Source: Balanoglossus misakiensis (taxonomy: Eukaryota; Animalia; Hemichordata). Taken from it: a DNA stretch of 64,000 bases. Position 1 is the stretch's first letter; each line of letters opens with the position of its first letter. The translations under genes and the position numbers were made by a program. The stretch is from positions 8,875,200-8,939,199 of the forward strand of contig CM082593.2 in NCBI GenBank assembly GCA_040954595.2. Reading direction: 5' to 3'. The notes under the pieces were generated by a model. It saw only the letters and a program-made list of their open reading frames with translations, searched no databases and was not told where the DNA came from. This document shows, one piece after another, positions 20,209-52,813 of this stretch.

Positions 20209-20973
20209 TACGGTGGACGATACCGACACTCCTCTGCTATGCTAAGTCGGCCTCCTCTGCTATGCTAATTCCTCCTCTGCTATGCTAATTCCTGCGATGA
20301 TATGCTAAGTCCTGCGATGATATGCTAATTCCTGCGATGCTAACTGAATCTGATCTGCTGTCGACCTCCTCTGCTATGCTATGTCTATCTGCGATGCTAT
20401 GCTAAGTCCTGCGATGCTATGCTAATTCCTGCGATGCTAACTTAATCTGATCTGCTGTCGACCTCCTCTGCTATGCTATGTCGATCTGCGATGCTATGGT
20501 AATTCCTGGGATGCTATGCTAATTCCTGGGATGCTAACTTAACCGGAAGTACTGGAGTACATTTTTCCGAACAAACATACGCTCGTCTCACATGCAGCAG
20601 ACTTGCTGTTTGGCGACTGATTTGGCCGATCGGAGAAAGCGGTAAGTGATAATAGAAATAATATATGAATATCTTATCCATAAAATTTGTTTCGAAGATA
20701 CGGATTTTGTAGGCGGCGACAACGTCTGCAATTAGAGGCGATCGTTTCCCCACTTTCCAATCCTTGAAAGCAAACTTCATTTGCGGTCCTACTAATTACT
20801 GCCTGTAGCTGCCCGTCATTTTCTGTGGAAATTGGCTGATGATCAGTTTAGCCCAATATGATGAAACAAATATCGTGAAAGATTTTTCAAGGAGTCTTTT
20901 TTCTTAGACTGACTATTGGCTAAACGTTATATTTAGAGGTTAAACGGCTGCCAGAGGGTATTTGGGTGCGGGA
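20209..20973 (+). repeat. Left TIR of IS3EU element; outer ~330 bp is an array of ~20-bp CTCTGCTATGCTAA/CCTGCGATGCTA units
   Basis: Reverse complement of 52049-52813 with few mismatches. Confidence 0.93.
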
Positions 20974-21246
20974 CCTCTCATGTGAAAATTAGCATATTTG
21001 GCGGGAAATAATCACCGAGCGACTGCCTGTAGCTGCCCGTCATTTTCTGTGGAAATTGGCTGATGATCAGTTTAGCCCAATATGATGAAACAAATATCGT
21101 GAAAGATTTTTCAAGGAGTCTTTTTTCTTAGACTCACTATTGGCTAAACGTTATATTTAGAGGTTAAACGGCTGCCAGAGGGTATTTGGGTGCAGGACCT
21201 CTCATGTGAAAATTAGCATATTTGGCGGGAAATAATCACCGAGCGA
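20798..21246 (+). repeat. 224-bp tandem duplication over the inner end of the left TIR
   Basis: ACTGCCTGTAGCTGCCCGTC...AATCACCGAGCG at 20798 and 21022. Confidence 0.9.
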
Positions 21247-21515
21247 AGTGTTATAGAATTTCTAAAGTCGCACGACTTTATCCATGTTATCCCACATCCA
21301 GTAACTTGAATAAAGTGTGTTCTCTTGTATGTGTTCCATTTCTAAATTATTCACTGTTCTTGGTCCATTTTTTTTGCGAGAATATAAACCCTGGCTCTTG
21401 CCAATCAGCAAGCAGGATTCACACCAAGCATATTATAATAAAGTCATGAAACTAATGGATCCCTCTGTTTCTGTGTCTTGTAAGTTGTCTTTTGTCTTTA
21501 TTCATCTCCCAACAG

Positions 21516-21777
21516 AACATGTTCCTGTACAAAGTATGTCATACCTTTACTGCAGAGAGCAGTACTGAACTGTCTATGAAAACGGATGATATCATTGAAG
21601 TTGAGGGGTTACCATGGAAGTTCCATGGTACCCCTCAACAGCCAAGAGGTTGGCTTGTTGGCAAACGGAGAGGTGGGGAGTTTGCTGGGTCCTTCCCAGC
21701 AAACTTTGTTCATTACCTGGGGGAGAAGCTATCAACGCCCACGCCACCAACGCCGCCTTTGCCAGTCAGACAAAACA
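21516..21777 (+). CDS. SH3 domain + proline-rich exon resembling the PI3K p85 N-terminus (IS3EU cargo)
   Basis: Acceptor CCCAACAG, ATG at 21519, donor GTAAGT. FLYKVCHTFTAESSTELSMKTDDIIEV...RGWLVGKRRGGEFAGSFPANFVHYLGEKLSTPTPPTPPLPVR. Confidence 0.8.
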
Positions 21778-22935
21778 GTAAGTATGTTGTCTTTAACAGA
21801 AACAGATACACATTTTCTATATTAATTAAGAACACATGTTCAGTAACCACATCTGATTTGTAAGTAAACTGTCCATTTTGAGAAAAAAAGTGTCTGGTTT
21901 AGGTAACCTTCAATTGTAGACTTTGAACAAAGAAAGTCTCTGGCTCAGAAGTATTGGTAAACCAGTCCATATGAAAAAGGGAAGGAAAGGGAAAAAGAAG
22001 AGGTATAAAACTGTTTTTGGGTCCCATTTGGTATATATGTATATTTAATACCATAGGACATTATGGGATCGGTTGTGACTGTATGGATGTGTGTATGTCC
22101 ATCCACATCAAAAACTTAAAAACCACTTAGTGTATCAGCATGTAGATTTATGCGTGGCTGCAGATGGGATTTTGTTCAAATGAAGTTGTAATTACCTACC
22201 GTAAAATATGCAATTTAGCTGCGAAAATGTGGAATTGGTCAAAACTCACCCACCGTGTCCTTGACGCGATCTTCACGAATGTGGTCACGAGATGAGTCAT
22301 GTGGTAAAGTGGGTTCATAAGCTCATGTCCTCTATAATCCACTGGTTTTTTACAGGGACATTTTTGGAGATAAAAAAAAATAAATACCAGGAGAAAGAAG
22401 CCACCACAAACTGTCAAAGTATGCTTTGGTCCCTGTGTTCCGTTCATGATTATTGCTTTTCCAACTGCATGCATGGCTAATGAATATAATAAGTTTAATT
22501 GACCTGCATGATGTTCATTGTTTTTTGCATGAAAAATAGGTTAACAAATATTTTACCTGTTATAACATAAGATTGAAAGAGCCTTGATTGTTTTTAGATG
22601 CTTTTGCATATTTTGAACCATGGGACAACACATTCCTACATAATCAAAATTAAAATGTTGCTCAATTTTTGTTGTATGCATTTTTTTCTACTATTATTTT
22701 TAACACTATAATAAGTGTTAGCATCATATGTTAACACAATTTTAAAATAGAAATTAGCTTACTTGTTGCTGTTATGCAAATGCTCTTTGGACAACTGTTA
22801 TCCCTTTTCGATTTCTACTATTAAATCATCTCATTAAAACATCATTTATGAGACAAATGTATCACTAATGTTACTGGGTAGAGAAGGACACAGAATAATG
22901 TTGGTTTAGTTAAATGTTTAAGTCTGGATTCCATG

Positions 22936-23645: not shown

Positions 23646-24476
23646 GTTAGCGTTGGTGTTCTCATCCTAAGAGGGGAGAAATTGGCTGCATCGAGGAGTT
23701 GCCTCACTGGGTTCTCTGTGGTGATTGAAGTACCTGAAACAGGTTGGTATCTTTATTCATAGTTTTCTTTGGTACAAAAGTAGGTGTATATAAGCATCAT
23801 ATGCTATCTTTTTTTATACAGGCTGATGAACGTTTTAATAATTACTTTCGAAACTACCACACTGACGTTGTCTGAACTTTCTATCTTACAGCCAATTTGG
23901 AAACTATAACAAAAACAGTAATAGAGGCACAACAACAACAGAACCAATATTTTGACTCTGATTCTAATTATGTGCTGTTGTATAAAGATTACTCCGAAGT
24001 GAAGCAGGGATTTATTCTGCACGATTACAAAATAAAAGTGAACTTGCCGTACAGCAGGCTCACTTTTTATATTTGTGAGAGCGATGTGTATGAAGGTAAG
24101 CTGATATTGTCTGAGCCAATGAGGAAAAAAAACAAGTCTTTGTTTCTCAGTTTTTTTGAGAAAAATAACAGGGCCTGCAAGTTACACCAATATTTGTTTT
24201 CCACTTGCATGTGATTTACAAGATAACCTCATCACACCTTTTAAAAATTAATTGGAGGAAAATGTAACGGCAAACAAAGATGTAGTTTTCTGCTGAATTA
24301 TACACTTTATAATGAAATATGAACACCTCACTCTGAGCATTAAAATTGAAAGGAGACTGAAGAGCAATTTATTTTAAAAAGTAGCAAAATACAATGCATT
24401 TTTGATCACAAATATTCAGATGACGCATACTTGTAGCTTGCATTGTTTGGACAAGGTAAAAGCCATATATTCATAC

Positions 24477-24515
<39 letters not shown>

Positions 24516-27500
24516 CCTGAATTCATTGTTTTTAGTAATCAGGAAAACTTTCATTTGCATATTTTTTTAGAATATAAGAAGATCATTGGAGGCAATGGGG
24601 ACAGAGGAAACGTAAGTTTTGATAATTACTTTGTATACTCTTCATTTTAGGGATCATGTCCAATATTCCCCAGACTTACGTTTTTAAAACAAAACCTTTG
24701 TGACCAAATAATGTGAACAGGCACAATCTCGCAACCAAACACTACTGCAGATATTTGTAAGCTAAATAATGCTTAGACTGTCGACAGTCCCTTGCGCCTA
24801 ATGTGTATCTTTTCAGCGTTTTGTGCAAGGGCCGTAACAGCCCCGAGGGACTGTTATAGCTTGTAAGCCTTGCCTTAATATTAATTATGCAGGCAGAAAA
24901 TGACGTAGTAAAATCCTGGGGAGAACACTGAGCGGCCATTAAAAAACAACAGAATTTTCTACTTTATTAGGCTAATCACTTCCATAACAATATGCATAAC
25001 ATGACAGGTGAAATGTGCCATATGCCATATGATGTTACCATCATAAGTACATTTTTACTTGGCTCAATTTTCAGGCCTAAAAAGTAAAATAGCAGGCAGC
25101 AGTTTGAAGACGGATTGTATTACTTCATCGTCTTTTGATACAAAAATCTTTTATCTTTACTGTGGCTTGTGTCAGTAGCCTATTTGTCTAGTTTCTACCA
25201 TTGAGATGAATGTTAATTCTGAGATTATTTTGAACACAAAAGGTAAAGGATACCTCTACTAAAACACATTATACTTTGACAGAATACCAGCAGTCCAAAA
25301 ATAAAGAAGAGAAAGATAAAAGAAGAAAAACCCATCGTCATTGATGACGACGAAGATGAAGAAGTTCACTTTGGTCCTGCTCTCAGCTTTACATGTAGTC
25401 CAACCCTGGATGACACTTTGCCAATCCAGTAAGAACTATTATTACACATGCATAGTAACTGTAACCTGCACACTACAAGTCTGTCTGGGAGCTTAGTTAA
25501 AGATGAAGTGTCTAGATATATCCAAAACTACAAGTTTACAATTTTATCTTCATTCCTTTCAAGTTTGGCTCTGAGTTTATACATGTAATTACATTCGATC
25601 ACTTCCCATTATGACAGAAAATTCAACATTTTACTTTATGTGACCCCCCTAAACGTTAAAAAAAAACAGATGACCCCCCCCCCCTTTGGACTTCAAAGTT
25701 TATGTGACACCCCCCCCCCCACCCCCGGCCGTGAAAACTGCACAGTCCCTTATAGCACTTCACTACCCCATCAACTTTAAAGACAGAGTCTAATTTTACT
25801 TATAATATCTGAATGGTGTGAATATCAGAATTTTTGTGTGAATATTTGCTTATTCTAACATTTTCAGTCCTGGACCTGTTGACCCAACAACCAACAATAC
25901 ACCTGTTCCCAGTACAAGTGGAGTTCGTTCATACAGGTAAAAATAGATTATTTGTTTTGATCATTTACATAGAAATGCAAGCTATATTTTCGTACCTTAT
26001 AGCGCTTCACTACCCCTTCAACTTCAAAGACATAGTTTAATTTTACTTATAATATCTGAATGGTGTGAATATCAGAATTTTTGTGTGAATATTTGCTTAT
26101 TCTAACATTTTCAGTCCTGGACCTGTTGACCCAACAACCAACAATACACCTGTTCCCAGTACAAGTGGAGTTCGTTCATACAGGTAAAAATAGATTATTT
26201 GTTTTGAGCATTTACATAGAAATGCAAGCTATATTTTCGTACCTTATAGCGCTTCACTACCCCTTCAACTTCAAAGACATAGTTTAATTTTACTTATAAT
26301 ATCTGAATGGTGTGAATATCAGAATTTTTGTGTGAATATTTGCTTATTCTAACATTTTCAGTCCTGGACCTGTTGACCCAACCACCAACAATACACCTGT
26401 TCCCAGTATAAGTGGAGTTCGTTCATACAGGTAAAAATAGATTATTTGTTTTGAGCATTTACATAGAAATGCAAGCTATATTTTCGTACCTTGTAGCTCT
26501 TCTTTAAATGCAGATATAAGGTCACTGTACACTCTCCTGTACACCAGACTAAGACAGACTGGAGAGCTTTCATTGTCTCTTGCACTGTTGAGAGGTTGTT
26601 TCTCAAGAAAAAATTGAAAGGAATATTTTGGATGGAAGACTTATTTTCAAAAGTTCGAAATGCTTGCTCTCTCAATCCCCTGATATCACTTTTATTCCAC
26701 CAACAGTTCATATGTTGACCTTGTTGGGGAACATGAATGGGATTCAAGTGACAACGATGATCCTGACCTGCAAGCGGCCATAACAAATAGCCTTGTCGAG
26801 CAGCAAAATACTAATCTGTAAGTATTTGATATTTCAGACTTTTTACTCCAAACATGTTTTTTGCAAATCGTTTTGGGTTTGCACAAATACTAAAAAAGAA
26901 AAAAATCTGGGAAACTGAATTATGCATTATTTATAATAATGAAGATATAATTGAGTCAATTTTAAAAAATGTGTACACAACCTTTTTGAAAAAGCCTTAT
27001 TGTAGGTTTATAACTATAAAGTTATAATTGTCAGTTATAACTTCTACAGTCATCATTTAATAGTTAAGATCAAAGAACATGATGGGGCACTTCAGGTCCT
27101 AGATCAGTTGCTTCAAATATTTATGTATAGCATAACAAGATCGGAGTGGCATTAAATTTTGCAGTTGCTATAAACATCTAGTAAAAAAGTTTAATGGATA
27201 AGTAGTATTGTGTTGGTGTCCATTGTCACCATGTATTGATGGATAGATCATCCATCCATGGATGCATGCACACATGGATTAGTCATCCGTCACATTAAAG
27301 GGTGGTTTGCACTTCAACTATTCTTTGAATCCTCTACTCTGTTAGATCCATGGAAAACTCTCAGCAGTGTAGATCTTCTATACTATTGAAGTCTATAGTA
27401 TTTTAAGAGCTATTTGCTGTATTTGTTAATTAACACTTTCCCCCAATTGACAGTGACAACGAGCAAGACTTGCAGTCTATCTTGCAAAAGTTGACTTCCA

Positions 27501-30500
27501 AAATTCAGAAAGATAATGAAAATTGTAGCCGCTTCAACATCTGTCGAGGAAGAATATGGGAAGGTGCTGTGAGAGGATTTGCCAGAAAGACGTACAGTCC
27601 TAACCAGAAGATGCGGGTTAGATTTACTGATGACATGGGTCGGGATGAAGGTGCGGTGGACACTGGTGGGCCTACCAGAGAATTTCTGAGATTGCTCATG
27701 CGTTATCTTCAAAAGTCAGCCATGTTTGAGGGTCCAGACAACTCCAAGGCACTCTCTATAAATTCATCAGGTAAGTTAATTTCAAGGACTTCATGCATGC
27801 ATCCATCCATCCATGGCATGCATGCATGCATGCATGCATGCATACATACATACATACATACATACATACATACATACATACATACATTTAAATAATAACA
27901 CATGATAGCGAGGGCAATATCACGATTTGAAGCCTGCACGAGGGATGGTGCTCTCTGACCATAATATTGATGATGCCGGAGCCGCAGGCGAGGGTATCAT
28001 CAATATTGTGGTCAGAGATCACCAGCCCGAGGGCAGGCTTCAAATCGTGATGTTGCCCGAGCATCATGTGTTATTAATTTTATTACGCCGAACATTTGAA
28101 CGTACATACAAGGCAGGCATAGAAGAACGTAGACGCGCGTCCATATGTCGTACGTTGCTGAGAATGTAAAATGTCTCGATCTCCCAAGAATTATACGATA
28201 CCTTAGTACTTCGAACTTAGATTATTTTGAAAATACTGCACTGTTGGTTGCGATTTTGTTGTATTTACTGTCCGTTTGTGGTAAAATATCGTCCAGTTGA
28301 ACAGGTGTTAAGCCTATGTGTCGCTTTGAAGCCATAGATGCGGGAGTTGACTGATCGTGGAGGAAGCCATTGAACGACAGTTTGGAACGCGCAGAAGTCG
28401 CGTGCAGAACACAAAACAACCCAGCGGGCAATATCAGCGCACGCGACAGGGCTTTATCAACTCTAGCCATGTTATATCACTTTTTTTTCTATATCACGTG
28501 AGCGCGTCTCAGCCAATCACGAATATAGTATAATACGTGAGGTGTAATAAACATACATACATACATCTCTATATATCTATAAGTCATTTAATTTAATCAT
28601 TAATTCATTAATACTTACAACACTATGAAACTCTTTTGGCAGCAATGGATGAAGACTGGTATTTTCTGGCTGGCCGTATAATAGCTGTGTCAATAGTGCA
28701 TGGTGGGCCTGGGCCACACTTTTTCTCAAGAACTTTGTATGACAGTCTTGCACTTGGGTTCAACAAAGTTATACCAACTATATCAGACGTTACCAACCAC
28801 GATGTAAGGGAACAACTATTAGCTGTAAGTATATGGTTCTTCAAATAAATGTTAACTAGGCTTTTTTTCTATTAGATTACTCTGCGAAGTTCATGCATAT
28901 TGAGGCCCTTTATGGGATGCATTTCTATTCCTGCTTACATGTTGTACTTTTATTATACACGTACTGCTGTTAACCTATAGCATTCCATCGTATAATTACT
29001 TTCTGTGTTGGTTTGATATACAAGAGTCCCAATATGGGTGATATAACATGTCTTTACCTCTTTATAGTACTGACTGGTGGAAAATTTGTTGGCGGAAGGG
29101 GTGGCAATGCAGTTGAAGAAGTTTATCATTTGTGCAGCTGTCCATTTTATCTGTTGCATGTGGCTCTTTACAATTCAAAATCGATCATAAAATGATCCCA
29201 ATATGAATATTTGAATGAATGTTCCATAAAAGAAACTTGCAGCTAAATTCTCCCATTGTCACCAATGGGAAATTAATTACTGGTCTTTATATATTTTTGT
29301 AGATTATGAATGCCAGTACAGAAGAACAGCTAAGAACTGCGGTAGAGATGGCAGATCAGTTGACAGCTGTATCTGGGACTGATCATTTCTTGCCCACTCT
29401 GCAATCAAGACATAAATTGGTTGGTGACATAATAAAATTCTATGTCTTCAACAGGACTATGTGCGCTTACGAAAGGTAATTGCTAATTTTATTGTGACTA
29501 TACATGTATTGAAGTAATATTATGCAGGGTATTGTTGAAAGATGATGGTATGTGTTTTGGATCACTTTATATCTTGCAGCAAATGTATCTCTCCTGGTCT
29601 TCATCAAAGACCTTAATTGGGGGGAAAAAAAGTGTAGTCCTACTTTGCAAACTTCTAAGTACTAGTATAATTCCACCATTTGAACATTAAAATGAATGTG
29701 AAGCAGCCTATAATTAGATCAAAAACTTCACATGCCAGTACAGGCATGTGTCAAGATATCTTATAACACACCATGCAGCGAACCCTCGATCGTGATTCGT
29801 CAATACGCCGTCACGTGACCTTTGTCATTTCAAACTGTTCCCTAGGGCATCAGTTCGATCAGTTTCTGCCCGGTACTGTTGCCTGGATGTGGTGTGTGTC
29901 GTGTTTGGTGTGTTATAAAACTCATGATGACTGACATATTCGGGCAACAGTGTATTTTTGATGACCTCGGGACTGCATGTCACACCAAAACAGTCTGTGC
30001 CCTCGGTCATCAAAATACACTGTTGCCCTCATTGTCAGTCATCATGTGTATACTGTAGATAGGAGTTTGTTAAATGAAGTTGTCATTACCAAAAATATGC
30101 AAGTCAGCTGGGAAAATGTGAAATTGGTCAGAACTCAACAACCCCTGGTCAGATTGGTTTGAAAATTGGTATGCAGGTACCTTATTTCAACCTCATACAG
30201 TCCTTTTAAAAATTGAGTTAAAATAATGAATTTTTTTATTTTTTATGATTTATTTGTCTTTGTCCACATTATTGGCAAAAAATATTAAATTCTGAAAGTG
30301 ATATAGGCAGACTTCCTTGAAATATAGGTGGACTGAGTTACCATAGTTTTGTTCAATATACCAACTGTTCTATTTGGTGCATGTACAGTACACACGTGCC
30401 ATTGGCGGTTTTTGGGTCAGTCAGTGTTTGCCCGTTGATCTCTCTATGTGTGTGCAGTCTCTGTCTGTGTATGTACTCTGGTGTGGACTTTTTCTTGTGT

Positions 30501-31488
30501 AATCCCTAAATGGGACCACAGTGTCCTTGATGCTAATTTTAATTACCAGTGGTGGGTCAGTGAGTGTCTCTGTCTGTCCCCGGACTGACTGACAGAAATT
30601 GCTTATCATATGTGTTTGTACAATTTATTGAGGAAATACTTGGACTTAACTTTCATTTTTTTATTTCAGATTTAAAGCTGGACTATCTACCCTGGGGGTA
30701 CTACAGAGTATTATGGATAACCCATTGTCATTCATGGGTGTATTTATTCCTAATCAGAATAAAATAACGGCTGAAAGTTTGGAGCGGATCTTCACAGTTA
30801 CCCTGAGTCCAGAAGGATCCAATCAACATCAATATCAAACAGCATCTCTCAGTTACTGGCGAGATTATTTAGTTGACATTGAAGGTATATTCCTTGAACT
30901 ATTTGAATTTTTTACAGTTTTAAAATTTGACTACAGATTGCAGTTTTCAATTATTGTACCAAATGTATAAAATGTTTTTCTTATCAAGCATGTATCTCGG
31001 CTTGATACTAGTCTGACCGATGCTCCAGTTTAGTCTCTGAGTAAGGCTAAGTTAAATATTCTAGAACAGATCTTTTTTCAGTTTTGTGGGTGCCCAGTTA
31101 GTTAAAAATATGGCAGAAACATTTTTTATTGGAAGTGTGATTATCTGGTAATAGACCGCAAATATTGGGTACCTCTTCATGAATGTCATTTCAATGTCAC
31201 AAACTGCCATATCTCTGACAATAGACATCTCTTTTATTAATGTTAATAGAAGGAGAATCCGATGTCACATTGACTGATATCTTAGTGTTTGCTACTGGAC
31301 TAGATGTAACGCCACCTTTGGGCTTCTTTCCATCACCGACATTGGAATTTATAGAAGGTGAACGGAGCATGCCAACTGCCAATACATGTAGCAATATTCT
31401 ACACATACCCGTGCGTAAATCCTACAACCTTTTCAAGGAGTCCATGGACTTTGGAATCCTTAACTGCGCTGGATTTGGCCAGGTGTAA
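23646..31488 (+). CDS. G2E3-like HECT E3 ubiquitin ligase with UIM (IS3EU cargo gene)
   Basis: Exons ~23646-23742, 23892-24095, 25283-25428, 25868-25936, 26115-26183, 26362-26430, 26707-26817, 27454-27770, 28643-28824, 29303-29475, 30670-30884, 31250-31488. Phase-compatible from 25283 to the stop. Motifs EGAVDTGGPTREF, SIVHGGPGPHFF, LVFATG...PPLGF, PTANTC (catalytic Cys), terminal GFGQV*, UIM DDPDLQAAITNSL. Confidence 0.88.
25749..26497 (+). repeat. 247-bp tandem repeat x3, each holding a 69-nt symmetric exon
   Basis: TTTTCAG|TCCTGGACC...TCATACAG|GTAAAA at 25868, 26115, 26362. Confidence 0.92.
27795..27887. repeat. (CATG/CATC/CATA)n microsatellite, resuming at 28552
   Basis: Direct reading. 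Confidence 0.9.
27888..28551. mobile_element. Crypton-like non-autonomous element inserted in the microsatellite of a HECT intron
   Basis: ~185-bp imperfect hairpin (AATAACACATGAT...ATCATGTGTTATT), then TTTATTACGCC ... GGTGTAATAAA inverted pair. (CATA)n on both sides. Confidence 0.7.
29761..30052 (-). mobile_element. Hairpin-plus-short-IR repeat (Crypton-like non-autonomous), copy 2
   Basis: TTATAACACACC...GGTGTGTTATAA followed by hairpin CATGATGACTGAC...GTCAGTCATCATG. Reverse homologue of 7657-7912. Confidence 0.7.
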
Positions 31489-35900: not shown

Positions 35901-36654
35901 TAACATTTCTGTTTGGTCCTTGGATCAACACTCGGTTATCTGTAGAGCTTAAGTACTGTACTATTCATCAATAAATAACATTGAAGTGTTGAAGTTTTAC
36001 ATTCAGATAATAGATACTCCACATTACCCCTTGTTTTTGATTTATCATCGACACTATTTTAAATCTATATTGTTATCCCAATAAACATTCTCCTCTGATA
36101 TGGATTTGCTATATAAACGATATCTCACATTACTAAGATCAATTTACCTGATTGGCAGTGGATTTTCCATAAATGAAAGAATCCTCTCCAGAATAAGGAT
36201 CATTTCCTAGTTGACGTAGATAAATTTGCATGGCAGCAACTGTATGGTTTTCTGTGCCTGGATCTGCACGCATTCGCAGAGGACAACCTATTTGTATCAG
36301 AGGGTTTAACAGACATAAATAATATTGGAAGAAAACAAATTTACACATAACATACAAGTATTGACAAAGCAGTTGCGATATTTTACAGGCATATAGGCTT
36401 CCATGCATAAATGCCCTTTTTAATCGTATGTTAAATAGGTTTTGTTGTACAACATCTACAGAATCAAGTCTGAAACATTTTTGATGAGAAGTTTACAAGA
36501 ACAGTTACCCAATAGAAACATGGCCAGCACTTCATAAATTTGCATATAACATTTACACAATATTAACACCATCTGACTGGTCAACATGACCTACAGATGT
36601 TTTGTAAAGGTGTCAAAAAAAATTTTTCCTGTAAAAATCACCTGAGCCAATTAA

Positions 36655-36998
36655 AGGGACAAAGTCTCTCACTGTCCTTGTCCCATTAATTATGTTTTAT
36701 ACAAGATACTGTTTATGTTATTCTACATGGGGATATATAGTGAATCAACATTCAACCACACACATTTTCCATCCCACTTGTAGACACGAGGGTGAAAAAC
36801 TCGCCAAAATGAATAATCGGTGTTTACCATTTATTCATTTTTGGCAGGATTTTAACTCTTATATCATACAAATGGGATGGAGGTTGTGTGTGATCAAACG
36901 TTGATTCGCTATAAATCCACATGTAGAATAAAATAAACCGTGTCTTGTATCAAACATAATTAATGGGAAAAGGGCAGTGAGAGACGGACTTTGTCCCT
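36655..36998. mobile_element. Kolobok-type palindromic MITE, copy 4 (in transposase intron)
   Basis: TTAA|AGGGACAAAGTCTCTC ... GACTTTGTCCCT|TTAA. Confidence 0.9.
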
Positions 36999-37333
36999 TT
37001 AAACTTTATAAAAATGCCAACCTTCACCTTCAGAAAATGCCTGTCCTATTCATAAATCTACTTTCTTAGTTTCAGCTCTACAAACACTTCACTTCAACCT
37101 CACTTACCATTTAATTCTTTAACACAAGACAAATAGTAATGTGCAATAACTGCTGGGTTGTTATTTGTACTTGCAGCTTTGGCCCACACTATTTTCCTAG
37201 AATAACTGAATAAGACACATGTACATGAAGATATGACACAGGTGAGGGATTAGTTCAAACAAGTCATGTTATACTAATGCAAGCTTGTGAACGTGTCAAT
37301 TGAAATGCAAGTTTTAATATGAATTTCAAGAAA

Positions 37334-37550
37334 CCGTACTCGTCCGATCATAGCCCCATGCTCATTTATGCTGCTCACTTTTACATACATGTAGTGTCCT
37401 GACTACTGACGTGCCTGTACATTAATTTATTCCCATAAATTAGCATTAAATAAGCCCAACCGTATACAAACATTCTATTATAGGCCCATACCCTACAAAT
37501 TTTTAGAATTTCCTTTCACTCCCTTGGGGCTTATGATGGGACAAGTACGG
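37334..37550. mobile_element. Tc1/pogo-like MITE
   Basis: CCGTACTCGTCCGATCATAGCCCC ... GGGGCTTATGATGGGACAAGTACGG|TA. Confidence 0.6.
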
Positions 37551-39922: not shown

Positions 39923-42032
39923 ATGGAGGTGAGTGTTCATGAATAAACATGAAAAAGTTTTATACTATACGTATCTTTTGTTTACTCTTAGGATATCTAG
40001 TTTCAGTGTGATCTCTCTTTTTTTCGTTTTATAAGACTGGTTGTCGTAAGCATCGGCATATTTTGGTGATTTGAAGAACAACTTGACGATAAAAATCGTT
40101 GATACACGTGTACGTTATTAGCTAGATGCATGTCTGCGGATTTCTAACACTGGGAACTGTAATCGTTTGGTCTGTATTCGTAATAGAAAAGTGTTCTTTT
40201 TTAGCTTTCGGATGGTTTACGAACAAGTCCGCTTTGCATTTGTTCATGAAAATATCAACAACGGTATCGTGTTGACAAAAGAGCCGAATACCATGGGAAA
40301 ATCACGACGGGCCGGGAGGGATTGTATATATTACCGTGAATTACATGCATGTCAAAACATATATACAAATTGCACCTCTACCGACATGATGTAGTACTGG
40401 TATAAGGATATTTGTGCCATGAAAGTTACGAAACCAAGACATAAATTATATTTTTGGCGAATTTCGACGCCCTAGTAACAAAAATATATACCTAAGGAAT
40501 AATATGTTTTCAGGACATGTTTTATGTATCTCAAAACAAAAGCTTATGTACTAATGCTAATGCAGGGCCTGAGTGTAGGGTTTGGTTTTATTTTCAAAAT
40601 AACAGGAAATTAGTAATTATATGTGTACAATATGCTTGTTTTTCAGACAAGTTCTGACTATAGTCCAACTCAGGAAAGGTCCTGCACTCAAAAGGGAAAG
40701 GGTAAAAAAAAAGGTCGTGGACGAGGACGAGGAAGAGGTAGAGGAAGTCAGACTCAGAGAGGACCAGAATTTGGAGAAATTGTGCCAGAAGAAAGAAATA
40801 TAAGACTGAGAGTGAGTATTAGAATGAGAGAGAAGCAATAATAAAATGTTGTGTTTTGAACAATGCAATACAATTATACAATGTACTTGTAATTCAGTGT
40901 TTTTCTTTTGAGATTCATACCAAATCATCTAAGGAAATTGTATAAGTAATAACAAAGAATAGTAATTGATGAGAGTTTATTCCATATTTGACTGTTGAAA
41001 GTTGGTATTTTTTCTCTGTGGTGCAATCAGCACTAGTAATCCCCTTTTCATGAGAACAAAAATAGTGTAAACATTGTTTTGGCAATCATTATTTGACAAT
41101 TGGAAATAGTATGACATGATTCTGAGCATCAATAAATAGTTTGATATTGTTTTGTTTTTTGTTTAAATTTCACAGACACAGATATCACAAATGACTAGAG
41201 AGGAGTTGCAGGACTTTGCCCTCCAGGTGTTGGATCACCAACCAGGGTTGTTGTTTAACTTGTTGCAGCCAGCTGCAACCAACCCTGGTGGTTATCATCC
41301 ACCACCAGGCGGCCAAAATCCTGCATGGTGTATCTGCACCTATTGCAGAGAAATGCCAAGCCAACCGGAGCGAGTGTGCTGCATGAAGCAGCCCGGAGAC
41401 TGCGTTTCTCACCTAGATGTAAGAATACTAACTTTTGTCACTACTATATAATTTACATTGCCAGTGTCTCATGTTCAACCCTCCCAAAATAATCGTCAAG
41501 TCCTTGATTTGTGATTGCATTACATAATTTTTTAAGCGTGATAAGTCATAACAAACAGAACTACCTACATCAGATGTCAGAAATAGTGGGGAAGCCAAGT
41601 TCACAAGCCCCTATTTCCTTTTTCAAGATACGAATCTTCCTAAGAAATCATTGAAGAACTTTGATCAGTGTTATGTGTAACACTCATTCATTGATCAAAG
41701 GTCCTTGCTGTTTTCTTTGGTAGATTGGAATGTTCTGTTGATTAATTTTCACTCTATTTATTTCAAAGGTCTTCCAAATATTGGTCCTGCATGCTGGTGT
41801 TTTACACATAGCAAGGGCACTGCGGAACGATGTTTTGGCAATGAATGATGAGGATGACCTCAACCTAGCGAACCGCCATGCTGCCTACAGGCAATTCATT
41901 CTGTGGCAGCATGGCAGACTTGGCCCTGGTAACAGGAAAGTTATTCCAAGCTGCTGTGTGTGGCGCATCAGAGACAGGTACCCTGATGCATTTGGGCAAT
42001 ACAGAGGTTTTGTTGCTGCCAGACTGGGCTAG
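39923..42032 (+). CDS. KolX-like accessory protein with P2X7 C-terminal 'ballast' Cys-rich domain (225 aa)
   Basis: Exons 39923-39928, 40647-40811, 41176-41418, 41769-42032 (all phase 0, 678 nt). RG repeats; [16 protein letters not shown]; [32 protein letters not shown]...GQYRGF. Confidence 0.88.
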
Positions 42033-43523
42033 AAATTTCTAAATAAATTTCATACACATGTATATTTTATATATATTCATTTTTTTTTTGTACTTTCATT
42101 GTTATTTTGACTCTTTACAGTCCTCACTGTTCCTAAGTCCTATGATGGAAAGAAAAATTGTCAAAAAAGAGAAAATGAACCAATTTACACAGGTTTTACA
42201 CTTTAGTCATTTTCATTATCACTACGTTCATTTACATATCTTTTATTGGCAAGGCAAATACTTTTACAAAATGCCTGGAATACCTACAAGCAACTAGAAA
42301 TATATTTCCTTTTTATGTACAGTAAACAAATGTCCGTCCCTAGTGTGTTATTTACTCAAGTGCTGACATTGTTATTTGACTAGTTTACAGTCCTGAATAT
42401 CCTGATGTCCTAGGGTAGAAAAAGATATTGTAGTTATTTTTGTCTGATAGTTGCCACATGTAACTGGTAATAAAACATTTAGAGCACAAAAATAAAACTG
42501 TGTCAAATTCTTCCAAGTGGGGATCAAGTGCCAGATATTGCATATTATATTATATCATGCTACCGTCCGCAATTCTGATTGAACGAGAGCTCAATCCAGC
42601 GATGCTAAAATACTCAATAATGCACTGCTGGCAGTAGTAAAACAGGCCCCTGAACTAGCATACGGCAGCAAAAATGTGTGGTTAAACCACAGTCGCGCGT
42701 GTTTAAACCAAATAAATAAAACAAAAATATTGTTGAACTAACAGATGTTTTATTTTGGAACTGCTCTGTGGAAATATTTGTCACTTTGCCACGCGCGATA
42801 CCCGTTTTGTCACTTTTTGTCGTCTGCTTCATCCCGGCCGCTTACGGCTATTGCTATATGTCTCGAATTGTACCCAAATCTTGCGTATACCCGCCTGCGG
42901 CGGGGGTTATTGCTTAATTATTGTACACCTACTGCTGTAACATATTGAGTTCCGTAATATTACAATAATTCAGTTTGAGAATACAATAATTATTCAAATG
43001 AGGTCGCAGAGTCCCATAACACCAGGGTTATTGGACACATTTTGACTTTGACCTCACAGGTGTTCAATGTTAACACTGATGATATTACTCACTACTGTGA
43101 CAAAAATTGAAATAAAAAGTACAGTAATTATTAAACTAAATTATTGGTGAAGCAAGATGCGAAATAAGTCACAATCCTCAATAAAATTTCAGCCAAAGAA
43201 ATATGCGAGTGAACGAGCGAGCGCATTCATTTAAAGTTCCAGAACGAGCTCAGGGGCATAGAACATCGCACGCGAGACATCAGCAGGTCGACACTAGCAT
43301 CACCTGATGCGCAAGGTGTTCAATATGTGTTCAATATGCAAATTACTTCATGGCAGTGTCTGAAAACTGGAAAGTCCGATTTGGCCAATTTACCCTTTAT
43401 CGTTCATCAAGGATGCCTGGATGCCTGCACTGTACAATCCCGGTATTTATTAGCGCCTGAAAGGCCGGGTCGCCAACGCTGTTCTGCACTGTACAATCCC
43501 GGTATTTTGTAAATAACTTTACA

Positions 43524-46500
43524 CTATTTGGTGCGTGAAACTAGCTGCTCCACTAAGACTGATGTAGGAGGTGGCATTACTGGAGCAAGGTTAGCAGAGA
43601 TGTGCCGTGGATCATCTGCTTCAAGGACCATTCTCTTGTACATGCCCTGGCGGTCTGTCAGTCGCCTCTTGATAACTGCCATCTTCAGTGTTCTTATATG
43701 CGGATACGTCTTTGCTTCTTTTATAGGGGATACAGACCACCGCCCACTTTTTTTGTTGAATATTTTTTTCTGCCTAAAGTAGTAAAGAAAAAGACCTCCA
43801 GATGAAATAAATTTTTTAGCATTCATGTTAGTTTAGTGCAGTGTATAAAAGACTGAAACTGCATAACAAAGTAAGAGTTAGCTGTCATTGTCATTTTTGT
43901 ACTGAGAAGAATTTCCTATGTTTTTGCAATAGCAAACTTAACATCACAGTACTTTACATATTAAGTCTTATTATGTTTTCAACTTACAAAGTAAGACACT
44001 TGATGTAATATTTCTTATGAGAATTAACAAACAACCAACGGCAGTGTAGCTACCATTATTATTATTTGGTAAATTAGATTCACATCTGGAAAAGAATCAT
44101 GATTTTCAATATTCAAGTAAGGTTTGACATAACACAGGTAAACTTGAGATAGTTAACATAGTTGCTAAACTCTCTAACTAACCTGATTTCTCCATTTGGC
44201 TTCCTCTTGTATGGTCGATTATAGTGGATATTGTGATCTAAGGCTGCTAGACGGTTTCTAACCCTATATACAGGAGGGCTGTATGCAAACCTTTTACTTG
44301 CATATTGCAGGATCTTATTCTGGAATGTTTCCAGTTCACCAGTTAGTCTGATTGTACAGAAACAAATAAAGTTAACAAGTCATTGTAAATGACAGACCCC
44401 CGCCAAGAAATGTTTAGTGAATTTGTAGTCATTGTTCTTATGAACTCGCAGTCATTGCTTTGATCACAACGTTCCTGGGTTGGGACATGTACAAGTTGAT
44501 ATGTTAACTCTGAATGAGATCCGTTCACACATATCTGAGTTATGGCAAAACAAAATGGCCAACTGGTGGCCATATTGGAACAGATCAAGATGAAAATTGA
44601 CATGCACATGCATATATATGTCGTAGAACACTGTCCTAATGCCAACTTTGAATGAGATCAGTTCAAGTTTGATACATGTATGGGCAAAATGTATTTTCAA
44701 TTTACTGTATTTTTTGTCATGAATAAATTGATAACTAACCTTGCATTAAGATAGTAGGGAATCTTCTTCAGAAATCGGGTGTCAAAGATGATATTTCTGA
44801 GAACTTGGTGGGCCCTGCTTCCCTTTTTCAGCCACTCCCTTCCCCGGTCATCTTCTATATTCTCACTGAGCGGTCCGTGGTAGCAGTGATTTGATCCTTC
44901 CACTCCCACACCCAAAATCCAGTCATGCTCATCAACTACATGGTGAATGAGACCACCCCACATCCCCTGTAACAAAAGAACATGTATGGTGTTAATTATA
45001 AGTTTATGTATGGCGCTTACGGTATATGTAATTGTACATTTAAAGGTTTAGATATTATTCCTACAGTTACTGCCGAAATTTTCCTCCAAATATTTTTGGC
45101 CATATTTACAACTCGCATGTAAATGAAAATACAGACTAAATAGAACACTTACTCTAAACTCCACTTCACTAGATGCTGTGTTACAGCAATACCAAAAATG
45201 GTTGGTGATATGCTTCGTCCATTTGAGAAGTATCCGGCAGTCTCTTTGTTGGCCAGCCTACATTTAAGTAATTCAAAAAAAAGTTCACACTTTAAACTTG
45301 ATCACTGACTTGAAATAAAAAATCATCACACACACACACAGCCTGGTCACCATACCCAGTGTGTTTTAGATAGACTCACACACAAGGGTCTGGCCACAGA
45401 GTCAACTATCTTCCATTTTTAAGATCTGCATGTCAATAGAACTCAAAATGCGATGTCACAGCAATGAGGTCACCACATGGTTTTGACTCTGAAGTCTTTC
45501 AAGTCAATCACCGTACGCTAATTATTTTCCAACTATTAGCAACGCCCGGTCATTGCTCCGGCCAATCGGTAGTGTGTCGCGTAAGGTGATTGACTTGAAC
45601 GACGTCAGAGTCAAAACCACTAAAACAATTATAAACATTAGGGGAAAAATGAACCCGCCCTACCTACCCTATTTTGAAATTGCCCATCATCAGAACTACA
45701 GTTATTTTTCTTATGCCCTATACATAATATATACATACCTTTATAATTTTCTTTGCCAAATTCTTCGAACAATGCCAGATATCATAGGAATGTTTAATAT
45801 TTGGGTGTACAGTCTCTGTGTTGGGTAAAAAGAGAAACAATTTACACTTTGTTGTCTTAATCTATTACATATCATTCTAAACAATTTAAAGTACACTGTA
45901 AGGAAAGCATTGTTTGGGAGTACTACTCTCATAAATTTTACACCAGGAAACTGCCTGGGGCAAGTAATGTACATTTGTCATCAAGTTGATCTGAAACCAT
46001 TACTGTATATTGTTTACAATCATTGGGTGGTGGTGGTTGTGGACGTGGGGTCAGTCTATGTATCTACTATGACATACATTATGATAGAGTTGTTTGCACT
46101 GGTGAGAAATGAATTGCAATTATACATTTTGGTTCAAGGCTATAACTTCTGTTTTTATAATGAATATAAATGTAAACTTACTCATTTCAGCAGTTATTTG
46201 TGGATGGGCATCTGTCACGATTTCTGATATCTGCAGACCAGTTATCTCCCCCAAGCCTCTTTGGAAGCCCTTCTTTTCCATGTTGCATGACTTTCTTTCA
46301 GTCTCTCTTTTATCAACAGTAGATAGTGACAGTATTTCTTTTGAATCGTTCTCCATTAAACTATAAGTACAATATTGGGCCGAATAACCAGGGGAGTCCA
46401 TCCTTCCATCTCCTAAAAATATCAAAATGAATATAATTTCTCAACTAAATTTCAATTCAGCGTAATTTGTCTTTCAATATGCTACATAAACAAAATTTCT

Positions 46501-49500
46501 AACAGGTGGCCTTCGACTCATGTCACGTTCATTGGTGTGCATATGTATACCACTGTGGTTCATATTTGTTTGACATTATTGCACTGAAGTCTTTTTGGGG
46601 GGATATACATAAAATTTAGATCTATGATATCCATAATGTATGAAACAATAGTGACATACCAAGTAAAACAACATCCATATCCATGTGTTTCTCTAACAGT
46701 TCCCGCTGATGGTCGAGCCAAAACTCGTCGATTGATGGTACTAGATATGTCCTCTGCATTCGACTGAACACAGGTTGAGACAGGATTCTGAGATTTAGCA
46801 TCTTTGCAAACATGGCGATTTTGTCATAATTGTTCCCTGACATTAGGATTGCAGCAGCTCCAAGAAGATCTCCACTGCTGACCCCTCTGTTCAACAAAGG
46901 TTGGGAACACCATTTATATGATGTATGGCCTCTAGAGCAAACCTATAAGAGAGGACAGGGTTTTACAAAATACTTGAAGTCACAGTGCTTAAAATAGCCA
47001 AGTAAAAACAAGTTTTGCTTCAAAAATTACCAAACAGAACTACAGGCAGTATGAACATTATTAAGCATGTTCAGTTGTGAAAAAAAATTACAGATTGAAA
47101 TAACCAGACATCAAAAGTGAGAAAAGGCTCAAATTGTATCATGGAAAAATATGAAATTTCCCTTTAATGATGAGAAAGAATCACAAATAAAACCAACTGA
47201 CACACTGGTATGTTCTGGTTCATTTTTCTTTTTTCATATAAATATTCTAAGAATGATGCGTTTTTCTTCATTACACAGTGGCATTGCAATATACATGTAA
47301 AGCGTACTTACCCATTCCAGGTATAGTGCTGATCCACGGAATTTGTGGTGAACTTCAACAAGTTGCTTGCAGCCTTCTAAACTGCATACTGGACTTATAT
47401 TTCTTTTTGCTAAGACTAACAGCTGGTTCAAGTATGTCAGACAAAATTGTCCATCTACTAGGTCAGGAATTTCCCCTGCTGATTTAACATGTTGCACTCC
47501 ATCCTCTGACTGAAAAGCTGTACAGTCATCTTCTGTCCCAGATGATTCATCGGTGTCAGTATCACCCCCTGCGTCTCCTTCACTGCCATAACAGACCTCA
47601 ACACCATCAGCGCCTTCACTACAAATAGGGAAGGAAGTAACCACATTACTCATGCATTAAAGGTATCATCAAGAACACCTCAAAAATAAAGTGCATGCAT
47701 GAGTGAGGCTTGGCGTAGTTTTAAAAACAAAGCGGACAAAATACGGCTAGGACTAGGCTATGCTTCTTCAGACAACCAATGAACATTTTGGGGCACCAAA
47801 TGTAAGTGGTAGTCTAATAGTTGTTGCATTGGGACTACCAAAATAGTTTAGCCCCCTTCAGTTACCAGGAAGAAATGAATTGCAAGCCCTGGTATAGTCT
47901 TTTTTCTATTGTATACTAGTGGTATGCATGACTACAACAAAAAGCAAAAATACAACACAGTAACTCACCAAAGTGTTATGTTAAAACTGGGTTCATAGTC
48001 AGGGTCTTTCAGCGTGTCATCATCATACAGATCAGTGCTGCTCTGATCACCAGAAAAACTAACATCAATAGTTAATCTGTAAACAAGAAAATGTCTCATG
48101 ATAGGTAACAACGATATACTTAACCAGCCAAATATAAGAGAAAGACTCAAAGTAGCGATACAATGACTGTGACTATGTGTTAACTTCAAATATGGTTTAT
48201 ATTTACTACATCATTGATAGTGTCAGAGAAAAATGAATTATTATCTGTCCATTACTTACTGTTTTGGGTCTATAAAGGATTCTGTTTGTTTGCTTGAACT
48301 GCATTCCCTCTTTTCTCTAAAAGATTCTTTTTTGGGGGTTGAACTACAGTCCTTCTCGTTCTCCCTGTTCCAAAACAAATGAACAAGAGACAACAGCTAG
48401 TGAATATTATGGACTATTGTACCCTTGAGAATAGAGATATCTTGAACATTATATTTGGAATATAGATCAAGGATAGGAAGAGTGATTGCATAACCAGTGG
48501 CTGTACTCTACTGTATAAATATACATGTATGCAACACAATTTCACAAACAAAGACATGCATGGATTACTCAGGACAGTCACAACCAGTTCCATTTGGGTT
48601 ACATTCCCATACTAAAAACAATATAAATTAAGGATAACCAGTGAACATATTCATGTTGAAAATGTTTATGGTCATCAGTAGTAAATCAACAATAAATACT
48701 TGCCTTGCCATTACACACTCTGTCTCAGAAGCTGACATGGTGTCACTGCCAATAGTGTCAATGCCAGACAAAACAGAATTGGTAGTACTACTGCCACTAA
48801 AAAAACAAGAAGGAAGGTATAATCACATGGACCACTTCGCAGATAGAATACACAGGGGTTTGTGGGACAGTTTGCGTTCTGAGCTTGTGCGTTAGCCATG
48901 TACTATACGCTATTTTGAACGCAAATTAACCTTCATGCATTGCAAATACCCTACACAATTTTTTAACCGATCATCACAAATGAGTCACTATGATATGGTA
49001 GTTTTAAACTCAATGTTCTCACTTGTCCATTTTTAATGTAACAATAAGAAATGTGCACATACCATTCAATATCAGACAGCTCAGGTCTACTAGCACTATA
49101 CATTATAGAGCTCACACCACCACAGATCGGTGTTGATGCCACTGGTAACCTTTCAAGTCTCTTTGATGTCTTCTTTTTAGTTTCATAATAACTGTTGAAA
49201 AGTTGAAATAATAATATTGAATTTGAAATCTGCAGTGCATTTTGTTGATAATAAAATAGCTCACAAATCACACAAAAGCGACAATTTTGAATACCCCCTC
49301 TCACCTCCCCCAGATGTCCTTCATTTGTATTTTCTAATAATATTTCTTTTTGGGTCATTATTTTCAATGTCAAGAAATTCTTTATTACACAAAATAACAC
49401 ATTTTCCCATGACAAATACTATTTGAGTGAAATCTACAGTGAATTGACAACAACAAAAAGAATAGCAATGATATCAAAAACAATTTCAAAAACGAAAATA

Positions 49501-50420
49501 TTCAACCTTGTAGACTCTTGAGGAGGGTAGAGGCCAGCCCCCAGCATGCCCCCCCCCCCCCAAGCAGGCCATTACTCTGTTGGCTCCCATGGCCAACATA
49601 TAAATGTAGTTCGGAACTACCTCAGTCTCTACTTACGCTGAAATGTGAATTACTCACTGAGAAGCTAAGCCAATGTCACGGATTTTAGCACACAGCATCA
49701 ACTGCAACCCGATTTTGTCGGTTTACACGAACCAGGGACTTGCACGAAAATAAATTTGGTCTGAATGCGTGGGTTGTAGAGTACGGGACCATGCATGCAT
49801 AATATTACGTGACTGTGCATATCTCGTTTCACTTCGATGTTGCGTATTCGCGATTTACTATACTTGTTACACATGTATATCAATCGATTTCGAACTATAA
49901 CAAACTAATCAGTAATTCCATAGCCTATAAAATGAAGATCATCACATGAAGTTGGCGATCACGGCCGGAGCTTCAGTCACGTAGATCTAACAGACGATGG
50001 GGCCTCGAAATAGGCGACACAATAGGCTGCGAGTAGAAACTGTAACTGCAGTAACCTAAGCGATTCTAGTGAAAACCCCGATAGAAACTGTAACTGCAGT
50101 AACCTAACCGATTCTAGTGAAAACCCCGATTAAATAATATATACAAAACTTATACAGAGCAAGCATACACTAACTCAAAAAAAAGTCAGCGCAACTATTA
50201 CAGGTAGGCGGTATCAGCACGGGCGTATTAGAAACATTCAACACATGACATGCACAATTTGGATAACTTACCTATCTAGGAGAAATCTGGCAACATCAAC
50301 GTGTTTCGTCAAACCAGTTTCTTCCTTGACAGCTTTCCACCGATGGATCTGACCGAATATGTTGATTTTTCCCTCATTTTTTTTCTTCCATCTTTGCTGA
50401 TGGTCATCTTGGGACGCCAT
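43524..50420 (-). CDS. Kolobok DDE transposase, ~13 exons
   Basis: First exon 50272-50420 (RWKAVKEETGLTKHVDVARFLLD). Motifs GDGRMDSPGYSAQYCTYS, VTDAHPQI, KHSYDIWH (exon ~45739-45815), NHFWYCC, HHVVDEHDW..CYHGPL, TGELETFQN..YASKR, LAALDHN, KKSGRWSV; stop at 43524. Confidence 0.85.
45478..45620. mobile_element. Small hairpin MITE in Kolobok intron
   Basis: TGGTTTTTGACTCTGAAGTCTTTCAAGTCAATCACC ... GGTGATTGACTTGAACGACGTCAGAGTCAAAACCA. Confidence 0.65.
50034..50130. repeat. ~48-bp tandem duplication
   Basis: TAGAAACTGTAACTGCAGTAACCTAA(G/C)CGATTCTAGTGAAAACCCCGA twice. Confidence 0.85.
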
Positions 50421-52048
50421 TTTATCATCTAAAAATTTACTGCGCAAGTGCACAAGTGACGTCACATTGTATGACGTAACGTTTACGTCGCAATATTTGT
50501 GTGTTTATAAAAATATATGGGTACGTACCCATAAAATTTATTTTTATTATTTTTTTACATTCTGAACCATGGCAACTGACCAAATCACTCGTGAGTTATT
50601 TTATTTCGGCAAGTAAAGTATTATACAAACAAAAGTTAAGAGATTTATGCTACCAAAGTAAATTGTCATTATCATCAACTGTGCAGCTTTAATATCTTCT
50701 TCACTGGACGGTGTTGTCTTTGCCAACTTTAGTTTTTTAAGACGGTAACTGAGTTGTCTGGGACTTGAAACAAAATGGTTTTGTAAGTGTGTGTTTTACT
50801 ATTATTCAAATCAAATGGTGGGCTGGTAAACATTGAAATCATGAGACAATAGAGTTTCCTTTAATCACATAAAAAATAAATTCTAACCTGATAGTAATAC
50901 CCTGGTACATTTCAAGGAGGCTCCTTATACAGGAGGATGAATACCCAGCCTGCCAATAAGCTTCGATTGCATTATTTTCTGTAAAAGATGTACTTAAAAA
51001 TGAAAACTTGCATTTAAAGCGAGTAGCTCGTCTCACGCGCATGCATGTAACTTCCCAGCAAATTTTCTGTTTGATGCATTCAAATAGTGGACTGCCTTCA
51101 CTTCCTTCCATATTTCATGCGCACAGTATAAGTAGATTCTGGTTTTGTCCTCCTTTTCACCCAAGCAAGTGTCTCTTCCCGATCTCAGACACAGATTATG
51201 GTCGCCGCCATCTTGTGTGAGCACTGCCTTATGGGATTGACTGTTCACTAAATGTCTGTAACCAACAGCTACAGTTGGAACATGCGTGTGAGACAAGTTA
51301 CGCGCGCTTTAACTCTGCATCAAGATGTGTTATGTTTTCGAATGATTACAATCATATTTCTGTGTGCTAGAGCACAGAGGCCTGAATATGGAATATTTAA
51401 GAAATGAACAGAATGACTCTCGACTGGGCAGCTTGAAAAAACTGTCATGACATACATGTAGTATCCATACACATTGGCTTAATTGTTAACAAGTAACCAA
51501 TATAAAATCGATATTTATTAATTCCCACGAGCCACAGCATGATTTCTGATCCACGAATCAACACAGAAATATGGAACGCAATAGCAGTTGTCCTATCTAG
51601 GAGAATGTGGTGTAGGACGATGCTCTAATTATGTACATATATACACAGATTTAATACGGCTAAACACAAGACTCGGGTATAAGACTATCTGAAAAACTAA
51701 TGAACACTTGGCAAGATACCTTTTACAATTTTTATCGCTATCTAACAATTATAACATGTAAGACATGACTACTGTAAACAAACACTCATTATACATTGAT
51801 ACTAACCATTAAGAAAGTTTTGGTGGAACACTGGTGCACTCATGGTATATCTGTAATAAATAAACAAAAATACATTACTACATGTACGTGAATGGTGCCC
51901 TATTTCAAGGCACGGGTGATCATGTGTTAAAAGCGAGACTCTTAAAATGCCGATACAAGTTATTTTTGCTGGAAAGAAACAAAAGTCTGCTTTCCCAATT
52001 GAATGGATATAAATAACACATTATTTATTCGCAACCAAACAAGCAAAA

Positions 52049-52813
52049 TCCTGCACCCAAATACCCTCTGGCAGCCGTTTAACCTCTAAATAAAACGTTT
52101 AGCCAATAGTCAGTCTAAGAAAAAAGACTCCTTGAAAAATCTTTCACGATATTTGATTCATCATATTGGGCTAAACTGATCATCAGCCAATTTCCACAGA
52201 AAATGACGGGCAGCTACAGGCAGTAATTAGTAGGACCGCAAATGAAGTTTGCTTTCAAGGATTGGAAAGTGGGGAAACGATCGCCTCTAATTGCAGACGT
52301 TGTCGCCGCCTACAAAATCCGTATCTTCGAAACAAATTTTATGGATAAGATATTCATATATTATTTCTATTATCACTTACCGCTTTCTCCGATCGGCCAA
52401 ATCAGTCGCCAAACAGCAAGTCTGCTGCATGTGAGACGAGCGTATGTTTGTTCGGAAAAATGTACTCCAGTACTTCCGGTTAAGTTAGCATCCCAGGAAT
52501 TAGCATAGCATCCCAGGAATTACCATAGCATCGCAGATCGACATAGCATAGCAGAGGAGGTCGACAGCAGATCAGATTAAGTTAGCATCGCAGGAATTAG
52601 CATAGCATCGCAGGACTTAGCATAGCATCGCAGATAGACATAGCATAGCAGAGGAGGTCGACAGCAGATCAGATTAAGTTAGCATCGCAGGAATTAGCAT
52701 AGCATCGCAGGACTTAGCATAGCAGAGGAGGAATTAGCATAGCAGAGGAGGACTTAGCATAGCAGAGGAGGCCGACTTAGCATAGCAGAGGAGTGTCGGT
52801 ATCGGCCACCGTA
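52049..52813 (-). repeat. Right TIR of IS3EU element
   Basis: Reverse complement of 20209-20973. Confidence 0.93.

Follow-up and report, generated by a model that had tools for sequence, protein, structure and literature searches.

A 64,000-nucleotide stretch of the Balanoglossus misakiensis genome (GenBank assembly GCA_040954595.2, contig CM082593.2, positions 8,875,200 to 8,939,199 of the forward strand), hereafter the window, holds a transposon that carries its own HECT ubiquitin ligase gene facing its transposase gene. The block spans positions 20209-52813 and is almost certainly a cut-and-paste element of the IS3EU/GingerRoot type; the ligase is, with high confidence, a native and long-standing accessory gene of such elements rather than a private acquisition of this copy. 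The explanation that we find best overall, and hold at about even confidence, is that an IS3EU element landed in a Crypton and that its HECT gene would aid its spread by acting on a host protein. If true, a transposon lineage equipped with a ubiquitin ligase would give mobile DNA a new means of influencing its host. No publication on a HECT-IS3EU pairing was found in literature searches whose reach excluded Repbase, Dfam, subscription journals and bioRxiv supplements.

The element and its two genes

The terminal inverted repeats (TIRs) lie at 20209-20973 (+) and 52049-52813 (-) and, compared arm to arm, are 765 nt each and gap-free with 11 mismatches. The left TIR contains 20/97-nt subterminal tandem repeats, and a 224-nt tandem duplication (20798-21246) then follows. 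The termini read TACGG..CCGTA, and the 6-bp target-site duplication (TSD) GTAAAC stands on both sides (20203-20208 and 52814-52819). Excising the block together with one TSD leaves the reading frame of a recombinase open across the junction; when an 83-nt hairpin (19813-19895) is removed as well, the frame extends over 511 codons with no internal stop. There is no N in the window. A first-pass annotation, made by a model from the sequence alone, had proposed TIRs of about 765 bp, TAC..GTA ends with a GTAAAC duplication, a single insertion whose removal rejoins the recombinase, and IS3EU identity. All of these were borne out, the last by the ends, the TSD and the DDE transposase.

It is scarcely credible that an assembly artefact, or two TIR-bearing pieces paired by chance, produced the block. 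The left junction is bridged by no read-run contig among the matches listed, which would fit such an artefact, but the TSD is perfect, the target frame is restored exactly, and so is the transposase frame at a nested TTAA site; moreover, contigs of run X1 span the ligase and transposase exons with 0-1 differences. On these grounds the artefact was rejected. Runs X1 and X2 represent one sample, which may be the source of the assembly, and the matches of runs X3 and X4 are mainly to repeats. Variant contigs over the TIR, the SH3 exon and the spacer hint at related copies.

The TA..TA termini, 6-bp TSD and integrase-like DDE core (PF24764) are common to this element and to IS3EU/GingerRoot (PMC10045372, PMC6839031), and the transposase fits the IS3EU clade without the HHCC motif. 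Plant GingerRoot elements average 8.6-8.9 kb, whereas the present element is larger, at 21.5 kb with 765-bp TIRs. It had been called giant, and the 32.6-kb span was confirmed, but a third of the span is a nested Kolobok and introns have grown. Without the 11,061-bp Kolobok, the element proper measures 21,540 bp, several intronic MITEs (miniature transposons with inverted repeats) included, and relatives start from 6.9 kb.

The ligase gene lies on the forward strand. Its core (23646-31488) consists of 13 GT-AG exons that, in the spliced model, encode 643 aa free of internal stops; the model is 49% identical over 539 columns to the Ptychodera protein P0213, and this match takes in the small exons too. 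The core begins with a conserved N-terminal domain of unknown fold, followed by an acidic linker in which a 69-nt exon is present three times (25868-26430), a UIM-like exon (26707-26817) and the HECT domain (27454-31488). Pfam matched PF00632 on the last exon (E 2e-9), and the family profile matched both lobes of NEDD4-type structures through the catalytic Cys (E 1e-19). The first-pass annotation described the C-terminal end correctly: the Cys (codon 31387-31389), the terminal GFGQV and the Phe four residues from the end are all present. The Cys is retained in 218 of 244 aligned relatives (325 were gathered) and at 10 of 12 transposase-linked loci, and we consider the ligase probably active as an enzyme in the family. 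The ubiquitin-interacting motif (UIM) claimed earlier survives in a reduced form. The exon alone scored nothing in Pfam, and the aligned stretch of P0213 gave a UIM score (E 0.0065) below the cut-off; hence we call the exon UIM-like only.

The earlier gene anatomy was incomplete. An exon encoding an SH3 domain and a proline-rich stretch (21519-21777, +; SH3_9, PF14604, E 4e-8), probably the first coding exon, precedes the core, as does a basic linker exon (22356-22418, +) with a family motif also found in P0135 and at locus L002. Two features of this copy weigh against the explanation that we prefer. The first is that the SH3 part and the core differ in frame by one base, and no good single alternative exon turned up; the offset may be a true frameshift, an assembly error or a missed exon. 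The second is that the N-terminal domain of this copy is shorter than in relatives. The nearest SH3-bearing relatives are the Saccoglossus entries P0014 and P0211, the only ones among the 325 gathered proteins with an SH3-HECT layout, and they support the SH3 exon of the model. The N-terminal exon had no usable match in an Atlas search; the combination of SH3 and proline-rich stretch may resemble the PI3K p85 N-terminus. Contigs with seven substitutions over this exon exist. The linker is lengthened by three tandem 247-nt units (25745-26502), each with one in-frame 69-nt exon.

The transposase gene converges on the ligase gene from the reverse strand. Its ten 3' exons, with the D-D-E triad and one GC donor, occupy 34476-39623, and its 5' exons 50689-50981, where the frame is open to about 51114 and the start codon is not fixed. 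The model comprises 12 exons and 380 aa (D129/D188/E229) and is as intron-rich as the ligase. PF24764 matched three of the exons, each under the cut-off, and by eye the core resembles the Repbase IS3EU-1_CGi and IS3EU-2_SK alignments. Between the two parts lies the Kolobok (39628-50688), and leaving it out restores the transposase frame exactly. Thus, the proposed tail-to-tail arrangement of a HECT gene and a spliced DDE transposase stands, with PF24764 and the triad in place, but the transposase is split. Because the Kolobok sits inside a transposase coding exon, this copy is predicted to be non-autonomous and would move only with transposase from another copy.

Recurrence of the ligase-transposase pair

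A metagenome scan with a HECT alignment (A2; alignment A1 was too loose and A2 was taken instead) gave 222 relatives, and the best 80 loci, selected by HECT alone, were analysed. An IS3EU transposase is carried by 23 of these 80, every time downstream on the opposite strand, whereas nine queries taken as controls from the Crypton, Gypsy and Kolobok of the window matched 0 of the 80. The HECT C-terminus is reached in 51 of the 80 loci; where it is followed by at least 2.3 kb of sequence, the transposase is present at 20 of 21 loci (with cuts of 2.0 and 1.5 kb, at 21 of 23 and 21 of 24), and no transposase of this type was found upstream of the HECT gene (0 of 26 loci). The 80 loci fall into 39 DNA clusters, 11 with transposase, and nine of the ten informative clusters are positive. 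Three copies (L074-L076) share 99% identity and lie between different flanking sequences; L076 is complete, with TATGG..CCATA ends, 147-nt TIRs and its own 6-bp TSD, and L075 is cut off. These counts bear out the earlier suggestion that the HECT gene is carried as transposon cargo.

Some observations nevertheless weigh against a general rule. One locus (L067) has a HECT gene without a transposase, and at the 1.5-kb cut three of 24 loci lack one. The 6,931-bp copy L074 has no matching TSD. The choice of the best 80 loci is biased towards copies without introns, and few host groups probably contributed them. Furthermore, no HECT match was found near the window's second IS3EU transposase (158-1390, +), so that not every IS3EU need carry a HECT gene. 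This second transposase is intronless, matches PF24764 (E 2e-75), belongs to the other clade and by eye is near Repbase IS3EU-1_SK. Downstream of it stand an unexplained 307-aa open reading frame (ORF) at 5349-6272 and BEN-domain exons (10835-11430), and no TIR pair for it was found within 1-19000. It is possibly an IS3EU with different cargo, whose left end probably lies outside the window.

We also considered whether this element took up the ligase from a host in a single event and now transports it as a passenger, which is very improbable. Its many introns would suit a host origin, as would the fact that its nearest relatives are annotated acorn worm genes, one with the same SH3-HECT layout; GingerRoot elements also capture host gene fragments (PMC6839031). 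However, the same arrangement occurs in the nine positive clusters, whose HECTs share no more than 30-44% identity with the present one, the transposase is equally intron-rich, and single species have several copies of the relatives on separate chromosomes. A single-copy host gene was likewise rejected. Capture may apply to the SH3 exon by itself; the ligase as a whole is better read as native.

Longer proteins that fuse HECT and transposase were absent at E 0.001, which is weak evidence, and PF24764 occurred in 0 of 42 and 0 of 16 long HECT relatives. In the viral collection there was no match with P0002, A1, A2 or a first HECT pattern, and a second pattern gave two chance matches. Prokaryote genomes contained no member of this HECT family; three bacterial metagenome-assembled genome records hold canonical eukaryote-type HECT genes (L083, L084, L085), one of them spliced, and these are likely eukaryotic contamination.

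Transposons with ubiquitin-system modules are known, namely the Ulp1/OTU proteases of Ginger1 and Zisupton and the RING finger of RAG1/Chapaev. Those modules, either proteases or ligases of the RING type, mostly form one protein with the transposase, whereas here the ligase is a separate HECT gene. A further parallel is provided by the fungal TET+ IS3EU families (PMC12730594), which share TAYGG..CCRTA ends, a 6-bp TSD and a gene for a protein-modifying enzyme opposite the transposase. The cargo of these rust elements is an alpha-kinase plus TET/JBP, whereas here it is a HECT ligase in an animal. The accessible main texts of PMC10045372 and PMC6839031 make no mention of HECT or ubiquitin, and HECT has 0 occurrences in the accessible text of PMC10045372 with its supplement, PMC6839031, PMC12730594, 10.1101/2024.11.21.624632 and 10.1101/2021.09.26.461848, one of which calls IS3EU structure and function 'largely unexplored'; a term count alone likewise gave 0 for PMC5718144. 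Two oyster IS3EU entries in the PMC10045372 supplement label the transposase '_2p', which implies that Repbase lists another protein and may already hold the ligase.

Ligase exchange, function and the G2E3 family

Both genes appear to be under purifying selection. In the pair L001/L002, the comparison of dN/dS suggested by the first-pass annotation gave 0.18 for HECT (377 codons) and 0.15 for the transposase (323 codons). The values come from this one pair, which tempers them; L003/L021 were saturated and a third pair had too few differences.

The linked transposases form two clades (support 100/100) that are about 27-32% identical, whereas their partners are intermingled in the HECT tree. A HECT topology constrained to the division between the transposases was rejected in an approximately unbiased (AU) test (p-AU 2e-50; 11 rows, L002 and L063 left out, constraint group defined from transposase data). 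Similar HECTs, about 50% identical (L001/L010/L016), adjoin transposases of both deep clades, and a Mantel comparison of HECT and transposase identity gave rho 0.115 (p 0.15; 12 rows, L063 left out). This mixing means either that the ligase was exchanged between distant elements or that both clades inherited several HECT types; on the trees, swapping of the module between transposase lineages is likely. The N-termini of the relatives also differ, with UBX (in several relatives), SAM, SH3, CARD/caspase and TDP-43-N-like domains, although some of these domains may be gene-model fusions.

The proposed mechanism draws on knowledge of the two protein families. The DDE transposase would cut at the TIR ends and leave the 6-bp staggered duplication, and the HECT Cys would form a thioester with ubiquitin passed on by a host E2. 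Substrate choice would fall to the variable N-terminal module, here the SH3 domain, the conserved unknown domain and the UIM-like motif; the host protein chosen would most likely act in silencing, chromatin or defence, and by ubiquitinating this protein the ligase would help the element to spread.

That the target is a host protein rather than the element's own transposase we hold at about even odds. We rank the host target first because transposases that differ greatly have shared the module, because the N-terminus varies and because rust-fungal IS3EUs put an alpha-kinase opposite the transposase. Alternatively, a native ligase could act on its own transposase, either clearing the post-integration complex, with UBX or UIM recruiting p97 or the proteasome, or capping the transposase level. 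We regard this as rather unlikely. It gains from the fixed pairing and equal purifying selection of the two genes, from the UBX domains and from the shallow pairs, which are congruent in both trees and would fit a transposase target as well; host proteases, moreover, remodel Mu and retroviral integration complexes. It loses from the HECTs about 50% identical beside both deep transposase clades, which argues against tight cognate recognition. A complex prediction of L002 ligase parts with the L002 transposase, made without alignments, scored 0.16, under the 0.34 mark, and is counted neither way.

A fish 'G2E3-like' HECT has been described as an active K48 ligase that degrades host ISG15 (PMC13623101), which would favour a host target if that protein belongs to this clade; NHRE3 accessions were absent from the eight HECT clusters looked up. 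A third account, which we consider improbable, is that the ligase benefits the host, for example in stress or immune regulation, and that the elements are kept for that rather than for transposition. The immune phenotype of NHRE3 (PMC13623101) and the reading of 20 'G2E3' copies as deep-sea adaptation (PMC9700323) would agree with it. Nevertheless, the copies are recent and scattered, and many are damaged (L022, L063 and this one), and conservation across distant elements is more easily explained by benefit to the element. Help in spreading, through a host protein, is the function that we prefer.

The database relatives of the ligase are named 'G2/M phase-specific E3 ligase-like', with near-identical copies on different chromosomes (four in Cololabis and four in Carassius), and the HECT family comprises 2,113 clusters at 50% identity. 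In the genomes of animals, many genes labelled 'G2E3-like' are likely this transposon ligase, a proposal of the first-pass annotation that the recurring pair and the names of the relatives support. If so, 'G2E3-like' models and 'G2E3 expansions' in fish and invertebrates, such as the 20 copies in PMC9700323, become transposon cargo, and the family offers a large supply of compact E3 ligases whose targeting modules differ. Among fishes, HECT proteins of P0021/P0154 (Larimichthys, Scomber) and of the P0216 cluster (Megalobrama, Pseudorasbora) are at least 90% identical; this similarity is a hint of horizontal transfer of the element.

The G2E3 and GL-Metazoa class IV HECT families belong to the same divergent HECT group as this ligase and are treated as host genes in the accessible text of PMC3673628 and PMC2837046. 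According to Marin (2010, PMC2837046), G2E3 arose after the chordate/echinoderm split, and its group has been called 'extremely divergent' (Grau-Bove et al., 2013, PMC3673628); the string 'transpos' has 0 matches in either paper. True G2E3 has PHD/RING fingers and, in mammals, a non-functional HECT domain, whereas the present ligase keeps its Cys and has no PHD fingers. Pfam found no PHD/RING zinc fingers in the ligase model or in the window's exons; they are present in P0107 and P0133.

In a tree of 23 rows (L010, L022 and L034 left out; outgroups the canonical HECTs L083 and L085, L084 being excluded as partial), the HECTs annotated as G2E3 in parrot, coelacanth, paddlefish and arowana form one clade, sister to multi-copy fish 'G2E3-like' proteins (support 97/99, 99/98). 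This clade nests inside the transposase-linked HECT diversity under both a plain and a mixture model, and moving it to the base was narrowly rejected (p-AU 0.044, 0.038). Against a domestication, the outgroups are long branches and the place of the sister group within elements is not shown. It is possible, as a hypothesis from these trees, that the vertebrate G2E3 HECT was domesticated from an IS3EU ligase, which would give an origin for its odd, late-appearing HECT domain. The widest picture, to which we give slightly less than even confidence, joins these parts: animal IS3EU elements would as a standard have a HECT ligase as their second gene, an interchangeable module directed against the host and passed from one remote transposase lineage to another; these elements would account for thousands of the 'G2E3-like' annotations, and the vertebrate G2E3 HECT would be domesticated from one, much as the P2X7 ballast from Kolobok KolX.

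Target, nested Kolobok and other features

Three elements are nested here, a Crypton-like target, the IS3EU within it and the Kolobok within the IS3EU. The 5' part of the target is an intronless DUF3504/tyrosine-recombinase ORF (18926-20208, +), also broken by the 83-nt hairpin, and the 3' part, with the catalytic Tyr, lies at 52820-53152 (+), the insertion point being just ahead of this Tyr. The ORF matches DUF3504 and phage integrase in Pfam, and R, H-x-x-R and Y are all retained. Domesticated DUF3504 genes lose these catalytic residues, whereas CryptonA elements share the two matches, the absence of introns and the residues (Kojima and Jurka, 2011, PMC3212892). Thus, the target is likely a CryptonA transposon, and its earlier description as a host recombinase was rejected. 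There are X1 and X2 contigs that lack the hairpin, which hints at dispersed Crypton copies.

The nested Kolobok is of the Kol0 type, with 16-nt perfect AG..CT termini and TTAA duplications at 39624-39627 and 50689-50692. It holds KolX exons (41167-42032, +) with the P2X7 ballast domain (PF20478, E 1e-7 and 6e-21), a D-x-x-H signature and transposase exons (43527-50420, -), the pieces of which, read singly, had no Pfam match. The TTAA TSD, RR..YY termini, KolX ballast-domain gene and D-x-x-H make it an ordinary member of Kol0, from which no difference was found (PMC9587614). A piggyBac identity was rejected because of the AG..CT ends.

A Gypsy-type retrotransposon (55111-62392) has long terminal repeats that are 100% identical over 300 nt and encodes a gag zinc knuckle, protease, reverse transcriptase, RNase H and integrase, with a stop at 59717-59719 interrupting pol. 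A 355-nt palindromic MITE, very abundant in X1/X2 contigs, occurs in four copies (11550-11930, 16157-16510, 18030-18386 and 36650-37002), one of them inside a transposase intron. Finally, a 99-nt coding-like tandem repeat (63598-64000) runs past the end of the window.

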